A DNA stretch of 31,537 nucleotides from a virus (Duplodnaviria > Caudoviricetes). The first letter of the stretch is position 1, and every line of letters begins with the position of its first letter. Below, piece after piece: positions 1,987 through 26,766 of this stretch. The stretch lies in IMG/VR virus record IMGVR_UViG_3300027419_000076, positions 1 to 31,537 of that record. The stretch is one strand, 5' to 3'. The position numbers and the translations under genes are program-made. Under the pieces are notes generated by a model. That model was not told where the DNA came from. It did no database searches and worked only from the letters and a program-made list of their open reading frames with translations.

Positions 1987-2655
1987 ATGAAACAATATGT
2001 CATAGGAGATATACACGGTGGTTATCGTGCTTTAAAACAATGCCTAGAACGTAGTCACTTTAGATATAATATAGACCAATTAATTTGTCTTGGAGATATA
2101 GTTGATGGATGGAGTGAAACACCGTTGGTTATTGAAGAATTACTGAAGATTAAGAACTTGGTTTTAATTGAAGGTAATCACGATACTTGGGCTAGGGAAT
2201 GGTTTAAATTTGGTGCTAGACCGATTATATGGACACAACAAGGTGGTCAAGCCACGATTGATTCATATATATCAAATCCGGAGTTAATGATTAAGCATAG
2301 AGAGTTTTTTGACAAAGCGGTTAAATGTTATGTAGATGAAGATAGATTATTTGTTCACGGTGGATTTAGATTGGGAACACCGGCAACAGAACAAGACCTT
2401 CGTTATCTAACTTGGGATAGAGATTTATACGATAGAAGAAATAACACTTTAGATATCAGTCCGTATAAAGAAGTATTTATTGGTCATACTACAACTTGGA
2501 ATATATCTCATAATCCATTTTGTAGAAATAATGTTTGGTTCTTAGACCAAGGTGGTGGATGGGAAGGTAAACTAACTATAATGAATATTAATACACACGA
2601 ATTTTGGCAATCTGATGTTGTAAAAACATTATATCCGGAATGTCGTGGAAGATAA
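1987..2655 (+). CDS. calcineurin-like metallophosphoesterase (NinI/ApaH-like)
   Basis: GDIHG, GDIVD, GNHD, VHGG, GHT motifs. Confidence 0.9.
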   Translation: MKQYVIGDIHGGYRALKQCLERSHFRYNIDQLICLGDIVDGWSETPLVIEELLKIKNLVLIEGNHDTWAREWFKFGARPIIWTQQGGQATIDSYISNPELMIKHREFFDKAVKCYVDEDRLFVHGGFRLGTPATEQDLRYLTWDRDLYDRRNNTLDISPYKEVFIGHTTTWNISHNPFCRNNVWFLDQGGGWEGKLTIMNINTHEFWQSDVVKTLYPECRGR

Positions 2656-2659
2656 AACT

Positions 2660-3082
2660 ATGAACGAAACAAAAACATTAAGAGAATTTGGAAACGGAGC
2701 AACAAGAAGTTCGGCACTTGGTAAAATTGATTGGCTAGGAGTCCGTCATCCTAAAGTAGAATCTTCATACGGAAACTATATGCGAAAGCATACACAGACC
2801 GAAGATGGCACACAGAGAGCTTATAATAACTGGTGGGGTGGATGGAGTGAAGATGTAAGCATTCAATCATTAAATAGACACGTAGAAGATTTAAACGCTA
2901 TTGAAGCCGGACAATACGTTTACAAGATTAAAGGATTTCACGGAGAACACACTTTAATCTATGATGAACCAAATAAAAAACTAGATGAGTTCGGAGCAAG
3001 AATTACTAAAGAAGATTGTTACAACGCAATTAGATTCAACTGCGGAGCTGGATTACTAGAGTATTTAAGAAAAAATAAATAA
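2660..3082 (+). CDS. DUF5664-like dATP/dGTP diphosphohydrolase-related protein
   Basis: F.NGATRS...GK, NW..G, SLNRH, A..FN pattern; ATG at 2660. Confidence 0.55.
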   Translation: MNETKTLREFGNGATRSSALGKIDWLGVRHPKVESSYGNYMRKHTQTEDGTQRAYNNWWGGWSEDVSIQSLNRHVEDLNAIEAGQYVYKIKGFHGEHTLIYDEPNKKLDEFGARITKEDCYNAIRFNCGAGLLEYLRKNK

Positions 3083-3085
3083 TAT

Positions 3086-3925
3086 ATGATTAACTTACAA
3101 AAGTTATTAGTAACAAGGGATGATGATTTATTGGTAGAGTTCCCTGGTTACTCAAGAAGCGAACTTAGAAGAATGAAACATCAAATACCTGGTAGAGTTC
3201 CTAAGATTTTAGTCTTTGATATTGAAACTTCCTTTATGGAGAATTATACCTGGGGAACTTTCAAACAAGATATAGCAATCAATCAAATCAAAAATGATTG
3301 GAATATGATTTGTTGGTCTGCTAAATGGTTATTCTCTGATGAAGTAATTCACGATAGATTAACCGGAAAAGAAAGTAGACGTAAAGACGATAAGCGTATC
3401 ACTAAAAGTCTTTGGAAATTATTAGATGAAGCTGATATAGTAGTAGCTCACAATGGAGATTCATTTGATATTAAAAAGTCTAACGCTAGATTCTTGTATC
3501 ACGATTTGGGATTACCAAGTCCATATCGTTCAGTTGATACTTTAAAGATAGCACGTAAGAATTTTAGAATCACATCTAATAAGCTTGATTATCTTTGTAA
3601 GTTCTTAGGTTTAGAGATGAAGATTAACACTGGTGGCTCTGAACTTTGGATTAAGTGTATGAATGGAGATGAAGAAGCACTTGAACAAATGGATGTTTAT
3701 TGCCAAAACGATGTCAAGATTCTAGAATCACTTTATCTTAAATTAAGACCATACGATAAATCACATCCTAAAATTGGTTTATATATGGATAATTCTTCTC
3801 TATGCCACAACTGTGGTTCTAAGAAGGTAAAAGAGAAGGGTTTCTATACAACACTTGCTCATAAATATAAATACAAAAGATGTGAGTGTGGTGCGATTAA
3901 TTATACTAAAGAATTAATAAGTTAA
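3086..3925 (+). CDS. RNase H-like (DnaQ/YprB type) 3'-5' exonuclease with C-terminal Zn ribbon
   Basis: FDIET, AHNGDSFD, DTL, LDYL, YCQNDV; CHNC...C.C. Confidence 0.85.
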   Translation: MINLQKLLVTRDDDLLVEFPGYSRSELRRMKHQIPGRVPKILVFDIETSFMENYTWGTFKQDIAINQIKNDWNMICWSAKWLFSDEVIHDRLTGKESRRKDDKRITKSLWKLLDEADIVVAHNGDSFDIKKSNARFLYHDLGLPSPYRSVDTLKIARKNFRITSNKLDYLCKFLGLEMKINTGGSELWIKCMNGDEEALEQMDVYCQNDVKILESLYLKLRPYDKSHPKIGLYMDNSSLCHNCGSKKVKEKGFYTTLAHKYKYKRCECGAINYTKELIS

Positions 3926-4143: not shown

Positions 4144-7100
4144 TTATTTACTTTCTCCAAGAGCTTTTGCTCCAACAGCGATACCACCAACTCCAAACAT
4201 TAAGTCTGAAAAGTTTTTCTTTAATAGATTAGCCTTTTCTTCTTTGTCTTTATATACAACAACTCTTAATCCGGACTTCTTTAATGAATCTATTTTTTCT
4301 TGTGGTGTGCCTTCGGGAACTAAAGCACCTTTCCAATCACTAAGTTTAACTTCTCTTAAAGCCTTGGCTTCAAAATAATCAGACTTAATATTACCGTAAG
4401 TGTCTTTTAGTAATTTACCAAATGTAGATGCTTCAGCAGTTGTTAATTTACTTCCGTTGAACTTCTTAAATGAATTTTTAATAAGATTTATATCATCATA
4501 TCTACTCTTACTAATAACATCATAAACACCTTCACTATTTTCATCAACTTCAATTCCCATATCATCAGCCTTGCTTAAAAGATTATCTACTTTCTTTGTT
4601 CCTTCAGCTTCAGCCTTTTCTTTTGTTGTTAAAAGTTTAGCACTTTTCTTAATATCAGAGATACTTGAGAATTGTTTAAATGCGTGAACTCTTGATGGAG
4701 CAGCCCAATTTTCAGTTGCTCTTACATTATCGTTGTTTTGTTGAACTGATTGTTCCATTTTTTTAACAATATTTTCGTTAGTATATGGTAATTGTTCTTC
4801 AAAATCTTTTGCTAATGATTGAACATAATCATACATATCAATACCTTTCTTTTCAGCGATTGCTTCTAGAGTATTAATTGTATCAAAATCATTTTCAATT
4901 TGTAGAGCAAATTCTTCAAAGTCAGGTGATTCATTAAAAAATGTTCTAAATAATTTATTCTTATTTAATAATGTTTTTAATTCACCGGTAGGAACTTCTT
5001 TTTTTACAGATAGAAATGGTTCTCCATAGATAGCTTCTGCTAAATCTTTAGCTGTTTTTGAATCTATTTCATCCCAACCATCAATTCTATTAGCAAATTC
5101 ATCTTTTGTATATTCATTAGAAAAATTTCTAGCATCTCTGCTAACTCTTTCTAATGTTTCAGGGGATATATTACTAAACTTAGGGTCTTTAACAAAATCA
5201 AATTTATTAATTTTATATGATGGTTTAGTTGTTCTAACTGAATAGATATCACCACTAAATACTTTATTAGATTTAATAGCAGGGTCAATCATTCCCTTAT
5301 CTCCAACTAAAGTGATATTTCCAAAATCATTATAAGGAATATCTTTCTTTACAATAGCGATACTAGGAGCTGGTTGGCTACCTTGTGCTATAATCTTATC
5401 TAGATTAGTATCGTATGTATTATGTAGAACGAAAAGATTTTTAGTTTCTTGAACTTTAGGATTCTTTTGTTTTAAGATTGCTTCCTTAGCTTTCGTAACT
5501 ACTTCGCTTTCTTTTACTTGACCTTCTTTTTTTATTTGTGTAAAAGGAACTCTTAATTGTTTACCGTCTTTATCTGTAATTACAGCACTATCTCCGCTAA
5601 CTCCATAAGGTTTATCAAAGGTATATTTATTTCCTAGATATTCAACTACATCACCTTTATTATATTCAGTAGCTTTAACAATCTGTTCTTTAATAGGCAT
5701 AACTTGTTTATCAGTTATCTTATTAATTGTAGATTGAGATTTAGCCGGAAGTAAGATAGGATTCTTTCCAGGTGCGTTAAGAAGTTTTGGTGCTTCTTTA
5801 ACCTTCATTGAATCAAGTAAAAGTTGTGCTTCTTCTTGAGTAAATAATCTTGAAGTGTCAGTCTTACCACCAACTTGAATTGATTTAGGAGCTTCTAATA
5901 ACTTTCTAGATGCTCTTTCTAAACCACGTTTTTCTAATATCTTTTGTGCTTCTTCAATTACTTCAAATCTACCTTCTTTTTGTAATCTATTATATATCTT
6001 TGATAATAAAGTTGTTCTTGTTTTTGGATTATTAACTATATCAGCTAAAATACCACCTGTGATATTTCCAACGATAGAACCAGGTAATCCACCACCGGCA
6101 GCACCAGCGATACTTCCAGCTATTCTTGTAAGACCCTTACCAAGCATACCACCAGGTAATGTCTTTCCGTTAGATGTTTCTAATACTTTAATTGCTTGTG
6201 CGAAATCACCAAGTCTTTTATTTAATTTAGCTACTTCAGCATCATCAATAACTTCTTCAATTAATTCCTTAGCACTGTGACCCATTTGATAAAATATATC
6301 AGCATCTAATTCAGAGCCAGGAACTCTACGTGATACAGATGATTTTTGCCATAGACCACTTTTAATATCATTAAAATCTGTAACATCAATATATGATTGA
6401 CCATCAACATCTGTAATTCTATCTGCGTAATTCTTCTTGTATGCTTCAATTTCTCTATCTACTTTAGTTACTGCGTTTTGTAAATCTTCACCACGATTTT
6501 TAAGGTCTTCAGTTAATTCTTGTTTTAATCTATTTCCATATTCATCTAAAGAAACTTTTTTACCAGAATCTTTTAGAATGTTTTTAAAAGCAGTATTTTC
6601 TAATTGAGATTTAGCTCTTAAAGCAGAAATAGCATCATCAGCTTTAATCTTTCCATTTTGTGAATCAATTAAAGGTAATACTCTTTCTTGAACTAAAAAT
6701 TTAGGAGTGCTTTTATTCCAAGCTGCTTCTTTTTTAATAGCAGTAGGAGTCATTTTTGTTAAGTCTTGTGCTACATTAACAAGTCTTTTTTCAGATGAAG
6801 ATAAAAGTTTTGTTTTAATTGCTGGAATTGTTTGTGTGATAGCTCTACCACCTAATCCTAAAGCAGGACTTAATACAGCTCCACCAACAGCTCCACCTAA
6901 AGCACCACCAACAGCTCCACCTAATACATTTCTGTCTTGATTAAGAGCTTGTCCAGCACCATATAAAGCACCTGCTTCAGCACCAGTCTTAGCACCGGTA
7001 ATAGCTAAATTTTTAGCTACTGTTCTAAGTGGTGTTTTTAATCCGGATATAGCAGATTTAGCTCCACCACCACCAACAAAAGTTGAAGCTAATTCTAAAG

Positions 7101-7485
7101 CAGTTCCGGCTGCTTGTTTTTGACTTTGAATTGTTTTAACTCCTTGTCCAAAAACTGGAATTGTTTCTGCTCTTTCTTTTTGTATTTTTTCACCAGCCTT
7201 AGTAATTGTTTCTAAGGCTTTTTCTTTATTACCAGTAGCCATTTGAAAGCCACCTTTAATAACAGAACCGTATGTTTGACCAGCACTCTTTAAAAGTTCA
7301 GCACCCTTAACAAAAGGACTTACAATATCTCTAGCAACGTTTGTTAAGAAACCTGTTTTCTTTTCATTATAACCTTCAAGAATATTACCCCTGTCAACTA
7401 ATGATTGTAATAATTGAGTTCTATCAACATTTTTAGGTGCGTTATTAATTATTTCAGCTAGTTTCTTTTTTGTTATGTATGCCAT
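4144..7485 (-). CDS. large internal virion/ejection protein, polyvalent, with C-terminal ART-like domain
   Basis: 1113 aa, Gly/Ala-rich hydrophobic segments, last gene of structural operon; C-terminal LHN...PS...FG.ITL...GD / YFEAK motifs. Confidence 0.6.
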   Translation of the reverse strand: MAYITKKKLAEIINNAPKNVDRTQLLQSLVDRGNILEGYNEKKTGFLTNVARDIVSPFVKGAELLKSAGQTYGSVIKGGFQMATGNKEKALETITKAGEKIQKERAETIPVFGQGVKTIQSQKQAAGTALELASTFVGGGGAKSAISGLKTPLRTVAKNLAITGAKTGAEAGALYGAGQALNQDRNVLGGAVGGALGGAVGGAVLSPALGLGGRAITQTIPAIKTKLLSSSEKRLVNVAQDLTKMTPTAIKKEAAWNKSTPKFLVQERVLPLIDSQNGKIKADDAISALRAKSQLENTAFKNILKDSGKKVSLDEYGNRLKQELTEDLKNRGEDLQNAVTKVDREIEAYKKNYADRITDVDGQSYIDVTDFNDIKSGLWQKSSVSRRVPGSELDADIFYQMGHSAKELIEEVIDDAEVAKLNKRLGDFAQAIKVLETSNGKTLPGGMLGKGLTRIAGSIAGAAGGGLPGSIVGNITGGILADIVNNPKTRTTLLSKIYNRLQKEGRFEVIEEAQKILEKRGLERASRKLLEAPKSIQVGGKTDTSRLFTQEEAQLLLDSMKVKEAPKLLNAPGKNPILLPAKSQSTINKITDKQVMPIKEQIVKATEYNKGDVVEYLGNKYTFDKPYGVSGDSAVITDKDGKQLRVPFTQIKKEGQVKESEVVTKAKEAILKQKNPKVQETKNLFVLHNTYDTNLDKIIAQGSQPAPSIAIVKKDIPYNDFGNITLVGDKGMIDPAIKSNKVFSGDIYSVRTTKPSYKINKFDFVKDPKFSNISPETLERVSRDARNFSNEYTKDEFANRIDGWDEIDSKTAKDLAEAIYGEPFLSVKKEVPTGELKTLLNKNKLFRTFFNESPDFEEFALQIENDFDTINTLEAIAEKKGIDMYDYVQSLAKDFEEQLPYTNENIVKKMEQSVQQNNDNVRATENWAAPSRVHAFKQFSSISDIKKSAKLLTTKEKAEAEGTKKVDNLLSKADDMGIEVDENSEGVYDVISKSRYDDINLIKNSFKKFNGSKLTTAEASTFGKLLKDTYGNIKSDYFEAKALREVKLSDWKGALVPEGTPQEKIDSLKKSGLRVVVYKDKEEKANLLKKNFSDLMFGVGGIAVGAKALGESK

Positions 7486-25618: not shown

Positions 25619-25620
25619 TG

Positions 25621-25691
25621 AGCCGAATAGTGGAATCGAACCACTGTCTGATGCTTACAAGGCAACTGTTTTACCACTAAACTAATAAGAC
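25621..25691 (-). tRNA. tRNA-Thr(UGU), degenerate acceptor stem
   Basis: D and T arms canonical, loop CT-TGT-AA; acceptor GTCTTAT/ATTCGGC has two mismatches. Confidence 0.7.
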
Positions 25692-25760
25692 GATTGGGAT
25701 TTCTCCCACGAATAGCTTTCACTATCCCTTCAGCATTCGCTGGTTATATATTGTTGTTTG

Positions 25761-25823
25761 TGGACTATCAGAGAATTGAACTCTGGTCTTTGCTACTAAG
25801 CAAATCGAATGCCTTTATAGCCC
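25761..25823 (-). ncRNA. minimal tmRNA tRNA-like domain (no mRNA-like domain)
   Basis: GGGCTAT/ATAGTCC with G3-U70, A73, stemless D-loop AAAGGCATTCGA, 6-bp hairpin, GAC linker, T-arm CAGAG-TTCAATT-CTCTG. Confidence 0.75.
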
Positions 25824-25929
25824 TTAACTCTACTTTGTTTTCCTTTAGTATCTTAAATACTTTATTCATCTTCCATTTGTATTTAATACTAAGGTTTCTT
25901 TTATGCTTGTTTCTAGATTTGAATTTCAT
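25768..25929 (-). CDS. basic 53-aa ORF ending inside the mini-tmRNA
   Basis: AAT-ATG start context like other genes; TGA overlaps the T-stem 3' end. Confidence 0.4.
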   Translation of the reverse strand: MKFKSRNKHKRNLSIKYKWKMNKVFKILKENKVELRAIKAFDLLSSKDQSSIL

Positions 25930-26037
25930 ATTTAACCGGACATAAAAGTTAATTGTTAGCTTTACCTTGATACGGTGTAGATGGAGCTGGTCAAGCATTC
26001 GTCATCTTTCTCTTTAGCATTTCATATTTTCTTGGTG

Positions 26038-26110
26038 TGGACAATGTGGGAATCGAACCCACCCAAATTCATCGCAAATGATTTTCGCCTACCTTGGAAC
26101 ATTATCGCCC
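26038..26110 (-). tRNA. tRNA-Ala(UGC), atypical D-arm
   Basis: GGGCGAT/ATTGTCC with G3-U70, loop TT-TGC-GA, T-loop TTCGATT. Confidence 0.75.
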
Positions 26111-26124
26111 ATTATTTACTAACG

Positions 26125-26200
26125 TCTTACCAATTAGTTACTAGACGAAGATGTCTATCTAGCCATTCATCGCATCTCCTCTGAATGAAAATTAGTAAGA
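26125..26200 (-). ncRNA. three-way-junction RNA with kissing loops
   Basis: P1 10 bp, P2 6 bp, P3 6 bp; loops GGAGAUG/CAUCUUC complementary. Confidence 0.6.
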
Positions 26201-26217
26201 AGTCAACAAACAATTTG

Positions 26218-26289
26218 ACATCCGTGTTGGAATCGAACCAACGCATCTCTGTTTTGCGGACAGCAGCGTTTCCACTTCGCCAACGGATG
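26218..26289 (-). tRNA. tRNA-Cys(GCA)
   Basis: CATCCGT/ACGGATG, U73, loop CC-GCA-AA. Confidence 0.85.
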
Positions 26290-26302
26290 ATTTTAAACTA
26301 TG

Positions 26303-26373
26303 TCTACGATGAAGGAGTCGAACCTTCCCCACGTGAATCCAAATCACGCACGCTACCGCAACGCTTATCATAG
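26303..26373 (-). tRNA. tRNA-Pro(UGG)
   Basis: CTATGAT/ATCGTAG, CGTGA-TTTGGAT-TCACG. Confidence 0.82.
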
Positions 26374-26436
26374 AAACAAACAACGTCAATAAATTAACGT
26401 TATCAGGGATTCACTTCTACACGTGGCAGACGAATG

Positions 26437-26507
26437 TTGCTCCGATGGGAATCGAACCCATAACTTCAGCTTATGAGACTGACGAGATGCCTTTTCTCTA
26501 CGTAGCT
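26437..26507 (-). tRNA. tRNA with CAU anticodon (Met/fMet-like; Ile2 not excluded)
   Basis: TCAGT-CTCATAA-GCTGA; 1:72 mismatch as in initiators but lacks three G-C pairs. Confidence 0.8.
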
Positions 26508-26523
26508 ATACTATTATTTTCTA

Positions 26524-26597
26524 TGGGGTGTATAGTGAGAATCGAACTCACGACATTGGAATCACAACCCAAGGTTTTTCCACTAAACTATATACAC
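26524..26597 (-). tRNA. tRNA-His(GUG)
   Basis: GTGTATA/TATACAC, C73, encoded CCA. Confidence 0.9.
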
Positions 26598-26613
26598 ACC
26601 GCAGAAAACAATG

Positions 26614-26694
26614 TGTAAGCAGCTGGATTCGAACCAACGAAGCCGAAGCACCTGGTTTACAGCCAGGCGTATTTGACCGCTTTACTATACTTAC
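26614..26694 (-). tRNA. tRNA-Tyr(GUA)
   Basis: CCTGG-CTGTAAA-CCAGG, long variable arm. Confidence 0.92.
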
Positions 26695-26695
26695 G

Positions 26696-26766
26696 CATAG
26701 GAACTAGGACTTGAACCCAGAATGAACGATTTGGAATCGTTAGTGTTACCATTACACTATCCCTAC
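26696..26766 (-). tRNA. tRNA-Trp(CCA)
   Basis: AACGA-TTCCAAA-TCGTT, G73. Confidence 0.9.

Follow-up and report, generated by a model that had tools for sequence, protein, structure and literature searches.

A 63-nt gene within the tRNA cluster of a phage genome almost certainly encodes a message-less tmRNA, one that consists of the tRNA-like domain only (TLD-only). It lies in the window, the whole stretch of 31,537 nucleotides that we analysed, which is a linear phage record of 31.5 kb with an estimated completeness of 86% and a G+C content of 32%. We concluded that this mini-tmRNA is real and under selection and that it is a very compact member of a kind known from mycobacteriophage DS6A; we are far more certain that it is a TLD-only tmRNA than of how it works. 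The kind is known but has been treated as a curiosity, with 9 database entries as against the 181 distinct sequences obtained here; its members are missed by ARAGORN and are unannotated even in the cultured phage pSt2308. The interest of the mini-tmRNA lies in the size of this unannotated family and in the testable question of its role.

Position and predicted structure of the mini-tmRNA

The genes of the phage record include those for terminase, the major head protein, an adaptor, ERF and NinG. Just upstream of the terminase genes lies a tRNA cluster, all on one strand and likely one transcript, in which the mini-tmRNA is the eighth member and sits between tRNA-Ala and tRNA-Thr. The relevant features are as follows.

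25620..26766, minus strand: tRNA cluster (Trp, Tyr, His, Met, Pro, Cys, Ala, mini-tmRNA, Thr), from ARAGORN and Rfam
26037..26110, minus strand: intact tRNA-Ala(UGC), from ARAGORN, upstream of the mini-tmRNA and 210 nt away
25761..25823, minus strand: TLD-only mini-tmRNA gene, 63 nt, with G1 at 25823 and the discriminator A73 at 25761
25817..25823, minus strand: 5' strand of the acceptor stem (G1, G2, G3), paired with 25762-25768 in the predicted fold
25805..25816, minus strand: stemless D-loop of 12 nt ending in UUCGA, a putative SmpB contact by analogy with tmRNA
25789..25804, minus strand: helix-2 stump, a 6-bp hairpin with a 4-nt loop, replacing the pseudoknots and tag frame
25786..25788, minus strand: GAC linker 5' of the T-arm, read in the sequence and also present in the related locus L476
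25769..25785, minus strand: T-arm with a 5-bp stem and a 7-nt loop, from the predicted fold and a 49-member alignment
25762..25768, minus strand: 3' strand of the acceptor stem including U70, from the predicted fold and an acceptor-blind family scan

A preliminary description of this DNA had listed these elements and proposed a fold with a 6-bp hairpin, a 4-nt loop and no anticodon loop. The sequence and every listed element were present at 25761..25823 on the minus strand, and the proposed fold was the one predicted: a 7-bp acceptor stem, an unpaired 12-nt D-loop, the 6-bp hairpin, the GAC linker and the T-arm, with neither a D-stem nor an anticodon arm. The folding energy was −18.1 kcal/mol (z −2.55), and 5 of 200 shuffled sequences folded equally well. 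The 16 nt between the D-loop and the GAC linker are too few for a tag reading frame or a pseudoknot ring; the two halves of the molecule follow each other in the usual order and are connected by a short closed helix with no tag frame. The D-loop ending UUCGA also occurred in 24 of the 28 full-length tmRNAs compared. C74 (25760) is the only part of the CCA end that is encoded, the remainder being absent from the gene.

Some further features of the window were recorded. A protein of 1113 aa (4144-7485, minus strand) has a PBECR5 nuclease-like domain (PF18814, E 1e-19) and adjoins a 700-aa transglycosylase-domain protein; the two resemble virion proteins that are ejected, and the domain might target RNA. 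A Shine-Dalgarno motif was seen in 1 of 28 genes and a T at −1 in 85% of starts, which suggests that the host does not use Shine-Dalgarno pairing. Comparison of the start contexts of the phage genes singled out no host phylum.

Assignment to the tmRNA rather than the tRNA family

Rfam alone cannot tell the tmRNA reading from the tRNA reading, because both models gave the mini-tmRNA 25.1 bits: the tmRNA model RF00023, which aligned with it end to end (E 5.9e-7; gathering score 47), and the tRNA model RF00005 (gathering score 29). ARAGORN, a check suggested earlier, called neither a tRNA nor a tmRNA at the mini-tmRNA when run over the phage record. A covariance model (R2) was built from 47 TLD-only relatives, with the mini-tmRNA and its closest relative left out. 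This leave-out model gave the mini-tmRNA 57.4 bits (E about 2e-10) as against 26.4 for the neighbouring tRNA-Ala; the DS6A element scored 62.0 bits and the copy in Streptomyces phage pSt2308 72.6. Thus the Rfam comparison proposed in the preliminary description was itself undecided, whereas the leave-out model favours a tmRNA head, and this score, together with the family covariation described below, bore out the TLD-only identity. The Rfam tmRNA score of 25 bits is low relative to the 52-81 bits of most members, and the pair U7-A66 stands where 78 of 82 family members have G-C; the mini-tmRNA is therefore a diverged member of the family.

Three other identities were rejected. As a standard tmRNA (RF00023) the element lacks the tag frame and pseudoknot ring and scores below 47 bits, and as a tRNA-Ala (RF00005) it lacks the D-stem and the 7-nt anticodon loop with an Ala anticodon. 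It is not one piece of a two-piece (permuted) tmRNA either: both acceptor strands lie inside the 63 nt, no permuted family matched, and real permuted genes looked different. What we found is a DS6A-type TLD, with a 7-bp acceptor stem, G3·U70, A73, a tmRNA-type D-loop and linker, and a single model that covers DS6A too.

Size and conservation of the TLD-only family

We scanned IMG/VR with a pattern in which the D-loop end, linker, T-loop and acceptor end were specified. It matched an estimated 860 or so stretches, and 86 of the 120 loci examined folded as TLD-only; by extrapolation, such RNAs would be present in roughly 600 IMG/VR records as a lower bound. Partial scans of viral, genome and metagenome contigs yielded 181 distinct TLD-only sequences of 56-86 nt, mostly from phages, which fell into about 119 clusters at 85% similarity. 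The dominant class (142 of 181) is 73-86 nt long and mostly has an A-rich internal loop and a distal hairpin. The short class, of 72 nt or less, has 39 members including the 63-nt mini-tmRNA, which is one of the smallest TLD-only forms.

An alignment of 49 members whose D-loop has 12 nt showed pairing in 98.9% of the cells, and the covariation was 0.84 as against 0.17 for shuffled alignments; none of 500 shuffles reached that value, and slid controls gave at most 0.15. The acceptor and T-stems were themselves selection criteria for this alignment, whereas helix 2 was not, and helix 2 alone was paired in 96.6% of its cells across the 49 members; a separate count of helix 2 gave 96% vs 52% shuffled. 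G1-C72, G2-C71 and G3·U70 occurred in all 49 members, U70-C72 being preset by most search patterns. Two scans were blind to the acceptor. G3·U70 was found in 96 of the 98 folded matches of one, the two exceptions looking like short indels of the acceptor strand, and in all 17 of the other; A73 was present in 97 of the 98, while acceptor pairs 4-6 varied freely among members. The features that the preliminary description had singled out, namely the D-loop motif, GAC, G3·U70 and A73, are thus kept in homologues; the D-loop end and GAC were preset in the patterns, which means that their invariance is not independent and that DS6A-like variants are undercounted.

Closest relatives and the question of decay

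Among the 80 viral loci with the nearest terminases, many of them short on the upstream side where the mini-tmRNA would lie, it was found in three: the phage record itself, L476 and L477. It is therefore optional within the terminase clade. A blastn search of the mini-tmRNA against cultured phages gave no record at 80% coverage. The order of the tRNA cluster is shared by L476 and L477, except that tRNA-Ile replaces tRNA-Met. The TLD of L476 differs from the mini-tmRNA by one D-loop base and keeps the GAC linker. Its hairpin has a different sequence and a 3-nt loop, with four of the six pairs changed on both sides, so that the covariation looked for in relatives was found here as well as in the family at large. 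A near-identical TLD with a hairpin rebuilt by double changes argues for selection on the RNA structure and not for decay, and the compensatory pairing and covariation of the family likewise indicate that the TLD-only structure is under selection.

A functionless remnant, whether of a tRNA-Ala or of an ssrA integration site, would fit the equal scores from the two Rfam models and the absence of the mini-tmRNA from most terminase relatives. However, an intact tRNA-Ala adjoins the mini-tmRNA in both the phage record and L476, the hairpin was rebuilt by compensatory changes, the leave-out model separates it from a tRNA (57 vs 26 bits), neither end of the gene is missing and a closed helix connects the two, and no integrase was found among the 41 ORFs of the phage record scanned. 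The decay reading is largely refuted by the covariation, and we give it hardly any credence.

The tRNA clusters differ between the two phages in other respects. At 26110-26215 and 26373-26440 the phage record has spacer insertions with short hairpins that are absent from L476, and several tRNAs with the same anticodon have widely different body sequences. Related phage DNA was also found in contigs of other, probably DNA, sequencing runs.

Carriers and their neighbouring genes

No SmpB gene was found in the 86%-complete phage record, nor in any of the 38 virus records searched, 36 of which are carriers and two of which lack the mini form; the mini-tmRNA would therefore depend on host SmpB. An RF-1-domain gene was present in 1 of the 38, and a full-length tmRNA in 2 of the 38, L016 (G436) and L027 (G441). 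None of the SmpB, RF-1 and Pth families appeared among 108 of the 123 ORFs flanking viral members, and these members had no neighbour gene in common, the largest cluster being a capsid gene at 6 loci. In 14 of 59 long loci ARAGORN made a call within 1.5 kb (one of these was a tmRNA call over the element itself), and in the remaining 45 there was no tRNA within that distance. The cultured Streptomyces phage pSt2308 has an unannotated 78-nt TLD-only RNA in a tRNA cluster (PV588686.1:33356-33433; L287:2491-2568). Four other matches in cultured phages were rejected, each being a tmRNA-type 3' end alone and no TLD-only form. In Tunturiibacter phage Tunturi_4, an RF-1-domain gene directly precedes an unannotated tmRNA-type 3' end (L125:219-566).

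Cellular genomes, taken as one per species over 185,579 species, gave 27 matching loci, 14 of them TLD-only. The other 13 were dropped as 12 acceptor pieces of cyanobacterial two-piece tmRNAs and one full tmRNA end. The 14 assemblies are labelled Actinomycetota, Bacillota, Bacteroidota, Cyanobacteria, Anaerolineae and Saccharibacteria, and several of the loci lie beside terminase, tail or head genes or within tRNA arrays. A full-length tmRNA was also present in 4 of 5 bacterial assemblies tested, in which the mini form is therefore an extra. A Chroococcidiopsis MAG has, in a region resembling phage DNA, a TLD-only RNA (L260:3990-4057) that ARAGORN miscalls as tRNA-Lys and that adjoins a DUF2828/DUF7788/VWA protein (2304-3839).

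The Saccharibacteria-labelled MAG G003 is a candidate for a cellular tag-less ssrA. It has a 70-nt TLD-only RNA (L252:3324-3393; G003:C12) among housekeeping genes, 570 nt from smpB (L252:3966-4478, minus strand); no full-length tmRNA was found in this incomplete 0.5-Mb assembly, and the TLD-only RNA was the sole ssrA found. Most of 41 genomes near G003 have a long tmRNA. Short forms, 68-136 nt long and located in non-phage DNA, occur in four others, three of which also have a full-length gene:

L318:5462-5540, short tmRNA form near G003
L319:5552-5630, short tmRNA form near G003
L320:5840-5907, short tmRNA form near G003
L321:5582-5717, short tmRNA form near G003

A TrmB-domain gene lies no more than about 3 kb from each of these, and in that of L319 the D-loop end is altered and the linker is CAC, as in DS6A. 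When model R1 was run over 151 genomes of the phylum to which G003 belongs, with 31 candidates scored per genome, G003 alone was found. The D-loop of the mini-tmRNA is similar to tmRNA D-loops of genomes near G003, a mere hint of a Patescibacteria host; a close terminase was found in 0 of 401 genomes of the phylum, in a search without a positive control.

The small ORF overlapping the mini-tmRNA

The mini-tmRNA is overlapped by a small basic ORF:

25768..25929, minus strand: ORF of 53 aa that reads into the mini-tmRNA and has its final 18 codons and stop there

Compared with L476 over 36 codons, it showed 11 synonymous and 6 non-synonymous codon changes, with 13 of 19 differences at third positions, and it appears from this pattern to be under purifying selection. 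P0123 is a third variant, diverged but equally long, and the ORF matched no PHROG family. One contig joins across the ORF yet keeps the start of the mini-tmRNA, so the RNA is apparently independent of the ORF. We infer that a 5' cut at G1 would leave the ORF message without a stop codon, an arfA-like arrangement; control of arfA by a non-stop mRNA has been described, as have drop-off and alanine tailing (PMC8012679). Read-through of an upstream ORF is no general family trait (30 of 129 vs 26 of 134 for tRNAs, no difference). For the short class it was seen in 15 of 36 vs 25 of 131 (p 0.008 at 30 codons, 0.05 at 50), a weak effect in a post hoc test on relatives that are not independent.

Possible function of the mini-tmRNA

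The preliminary description had offered two functions, a decoy or inhibitor and a rescue RNA, and both are plausible. To the gene, fold, conservation and tRNA-cluster position observed above we add a mechanism that we hold with slightly more confidence than doubt, in which the mini-tmRNA acts as an alanylated competitor for host SmpB and stalled ribosomes, with alanine added but no degradation tag. As in tRNA and tmRNA biology generally, it would be co-transcribed with the tRNAs, cut at its 5' end by RNase P, trimmed at its 3' end and given a CCA. G3·U70 and A73 suggest that host AlaRS would alanylate it, and the D-loop and linker, with no phage SmpB found, that it would capture host SmpB and EF-Tu; the determinants for AlaRS and the binding of SmpB to the TLD elbow of tmRNA are described in PMC3968760. 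By analogy with engineered TLD fragments, it may then enter the empty A site and take part in peptidyl transfer and one or more rounds of alanine addition. Final clearance of the ribosome might come from drop-off and Pth, a host tmRNA acting later or some other factor. The example of DS6A suggests that the net result would be a drop in SsrA tagging during infection.

According to the two sources that cite the work, a DS6A-like TLD molecule is a strong inhibitor of tmRNA whether or not it can be charged, and may act by titrating SmpB (Mao 2009, cited in PMC4131195), and the DS6A TLD-only ssrA inhibits endogenous tmRNA in E. coli (Mao et al. 2009, cited in PMC11915505). Inhibition irrespective of chargeability, and the reading suggested for DS6A (PMC4131195), would accord with a pure sponge that binds SmpB only, destabilises host tmRNA and never enters the ribosome. 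The conservation of G3·U70 (96 of 98) and A73 (97 of 98) while pairs 4-6 are free seemingly goes beyond the needs of SmpB binding, although processing or stability could explain part of it. We regard the pure sponge as quite improbable and, because G3·U70 is near-invariant, prefer the charged competitor. The conserved features are those used by AlaRS, SmpB and EF-Tu (PMC3968760), which speaks against a role outside rescue, in which the RNA would be a decoy drawing off a host defence protein able to sense or cleave tmRNA or tRNA-like elbows. Such a decoy has a precedent in phage tRNAs that answer tRNA-targeting defences (PMC10264068), and there is a literature on defence systems that mentions tmRNA and SmpB; we consider it very improbable.

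It is unlikely, though to be taken seriously, that the mini-tmRNA is a tag-free rescuer, which with host SmpB would free non-stop ribosomes for the phage, for example when defence nucleases cut host tRNAs or tmRNA; having neither anticodon nor message, it would present little target to such nucleases. The near-invariant alanine identity is consistent with this, as is the position in a tRNA cluster, shared by some carriers (the 14 of 59 long loci with an ARAGORN call nearby), and phage tRNAs have been proposed to counter tRNA depletion (PMC10264068). CDS-less tmRNAs are kept, together with SmpB, in some mitochondria, and two plastids have forms of about 65 bp (PMC11915505). The TLD-only RNA of G003, near smpB and the sole ssrA found, points to a positive rescue role, although G003 is an incomplete MAG with no genome of the same genus or family for comparison. 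G003, the organellar forms and the two phages with a full-length tmRNA, which is odd for a pure inhibitor, keep the rescue reading alive. Against it, 45 of the 59 long loci have no tRNA nearby, the one member tested, DS6A, inhibited tmRNA, and an RNA without a stop codon has no built-in release step; this inhibition and the lack of a release step led us to prefer the charged competitor. SmpB and a TLD fragment make poly-alanine without mRNA in vitro (PMC3929946, citing Shimizu and Ueda 2006), which supports the alanine addition of the charged competitor; rescue by such an RNA may for the same reason not spare proteins. The charged competitor has a difficulty of its own, as a block of rescue may harm phage translation and an RF-1-domain gene that could take over was present in only 1 of 38 records.

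A broader proposal, which we think decidedly unlikely, would make the TLD-only RNAs a widespread working module rather than inert decoys. Together with host SmpB they would capture non-stop ribosomes and attach alanine tails with neither template nor RqcH, as a third rescue route, in phages of many phyla and as the sole ssrA in at least one Patescibacteria lineage (G003). In the present phage clade the RNase P cut would turn the small ORF into a non-stop message, an arfA-like switch whose product would go untagged only once the mini-tmRNA had put a stop to tagging.

If the preferred mechanism is true, phages commonly interfere with trans-translation by means of RNA, and the role of a message-less tmRNA can be tested with a natural 63-nt molecule of the size of laboratory TLD constructs.

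Comparison with known systems

The statement in the preliminary description that this was not a described phage system does not stand, since the ssrA of DS6A has been classed as 'TLD only' (PMC4131195) and appears also in PMC11915505. Of the 97,179 sequences in the 2025 tmRNA database, 9 are 'standard, no CDS' and 79 come from phages (PMC11915505). In the literature searched, with subscription papers outside its scope, we found no description of a widespread phage TLD-only family.

The DS6A element (tmRNA Website tmID 11587; JN698994.1:28478-28557) and the mini-tmRNA are both phage-borne and have in common an unpermuted TLD, G3·U70, A73, a stemless D-loop, a closed helix 2 and a T-arm, with no tag frame and the CCA not fully encoded; a model built without either gives them 57-62 bits. 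They differ in size, DS6A having 80 nt with an A-rich internal loop and distal hairpin whereas the mini-tmRNA has 63 nt with the 6-bp stump only, in linker (CAC in DS6A, GAC in the mini-tmRNA) and in setting, the DS6A element lying between protein genes and the mini-tmRNA in a tRNA cluster with a small ORF overlapping it. With standard tmRNA the mini-tmRNA shares the alanine-identity acceptor, the D-loop UUCGA, GAC, the T-arm and the start of helix 2, but standard tmRNA is 230-400 nt long (PMC3968760) and the mini-tmRNA lacks its pseudoknots and tag frame.

The organellar CDS-less tmRNAs, compared here by description only, also lack a tag frame; those of mitochondria are mostly permuted, and the plastid genes of Mallomonadaceae, at about 65 bp, are as short as the mini-tmRNA (PMC11915505); each is the organelle's own ssrA, in contrast to the mini-tmRNA, which is a phage extra. 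The engineered TLD fragments (Bessho 2007; Neubauer 2012; Shimizu and Ueda 2006) have the same design as the mini-tmRNA, the 5' and 3' ends of tmRNA being joined via a short loop (PMC3929946, PMC3968760), and the T. thermophilus construct, of 63 nt (25 + 4 + 34), even has the same size. Those fragments are artificial; the mini-tmRNA is natural and under selection.
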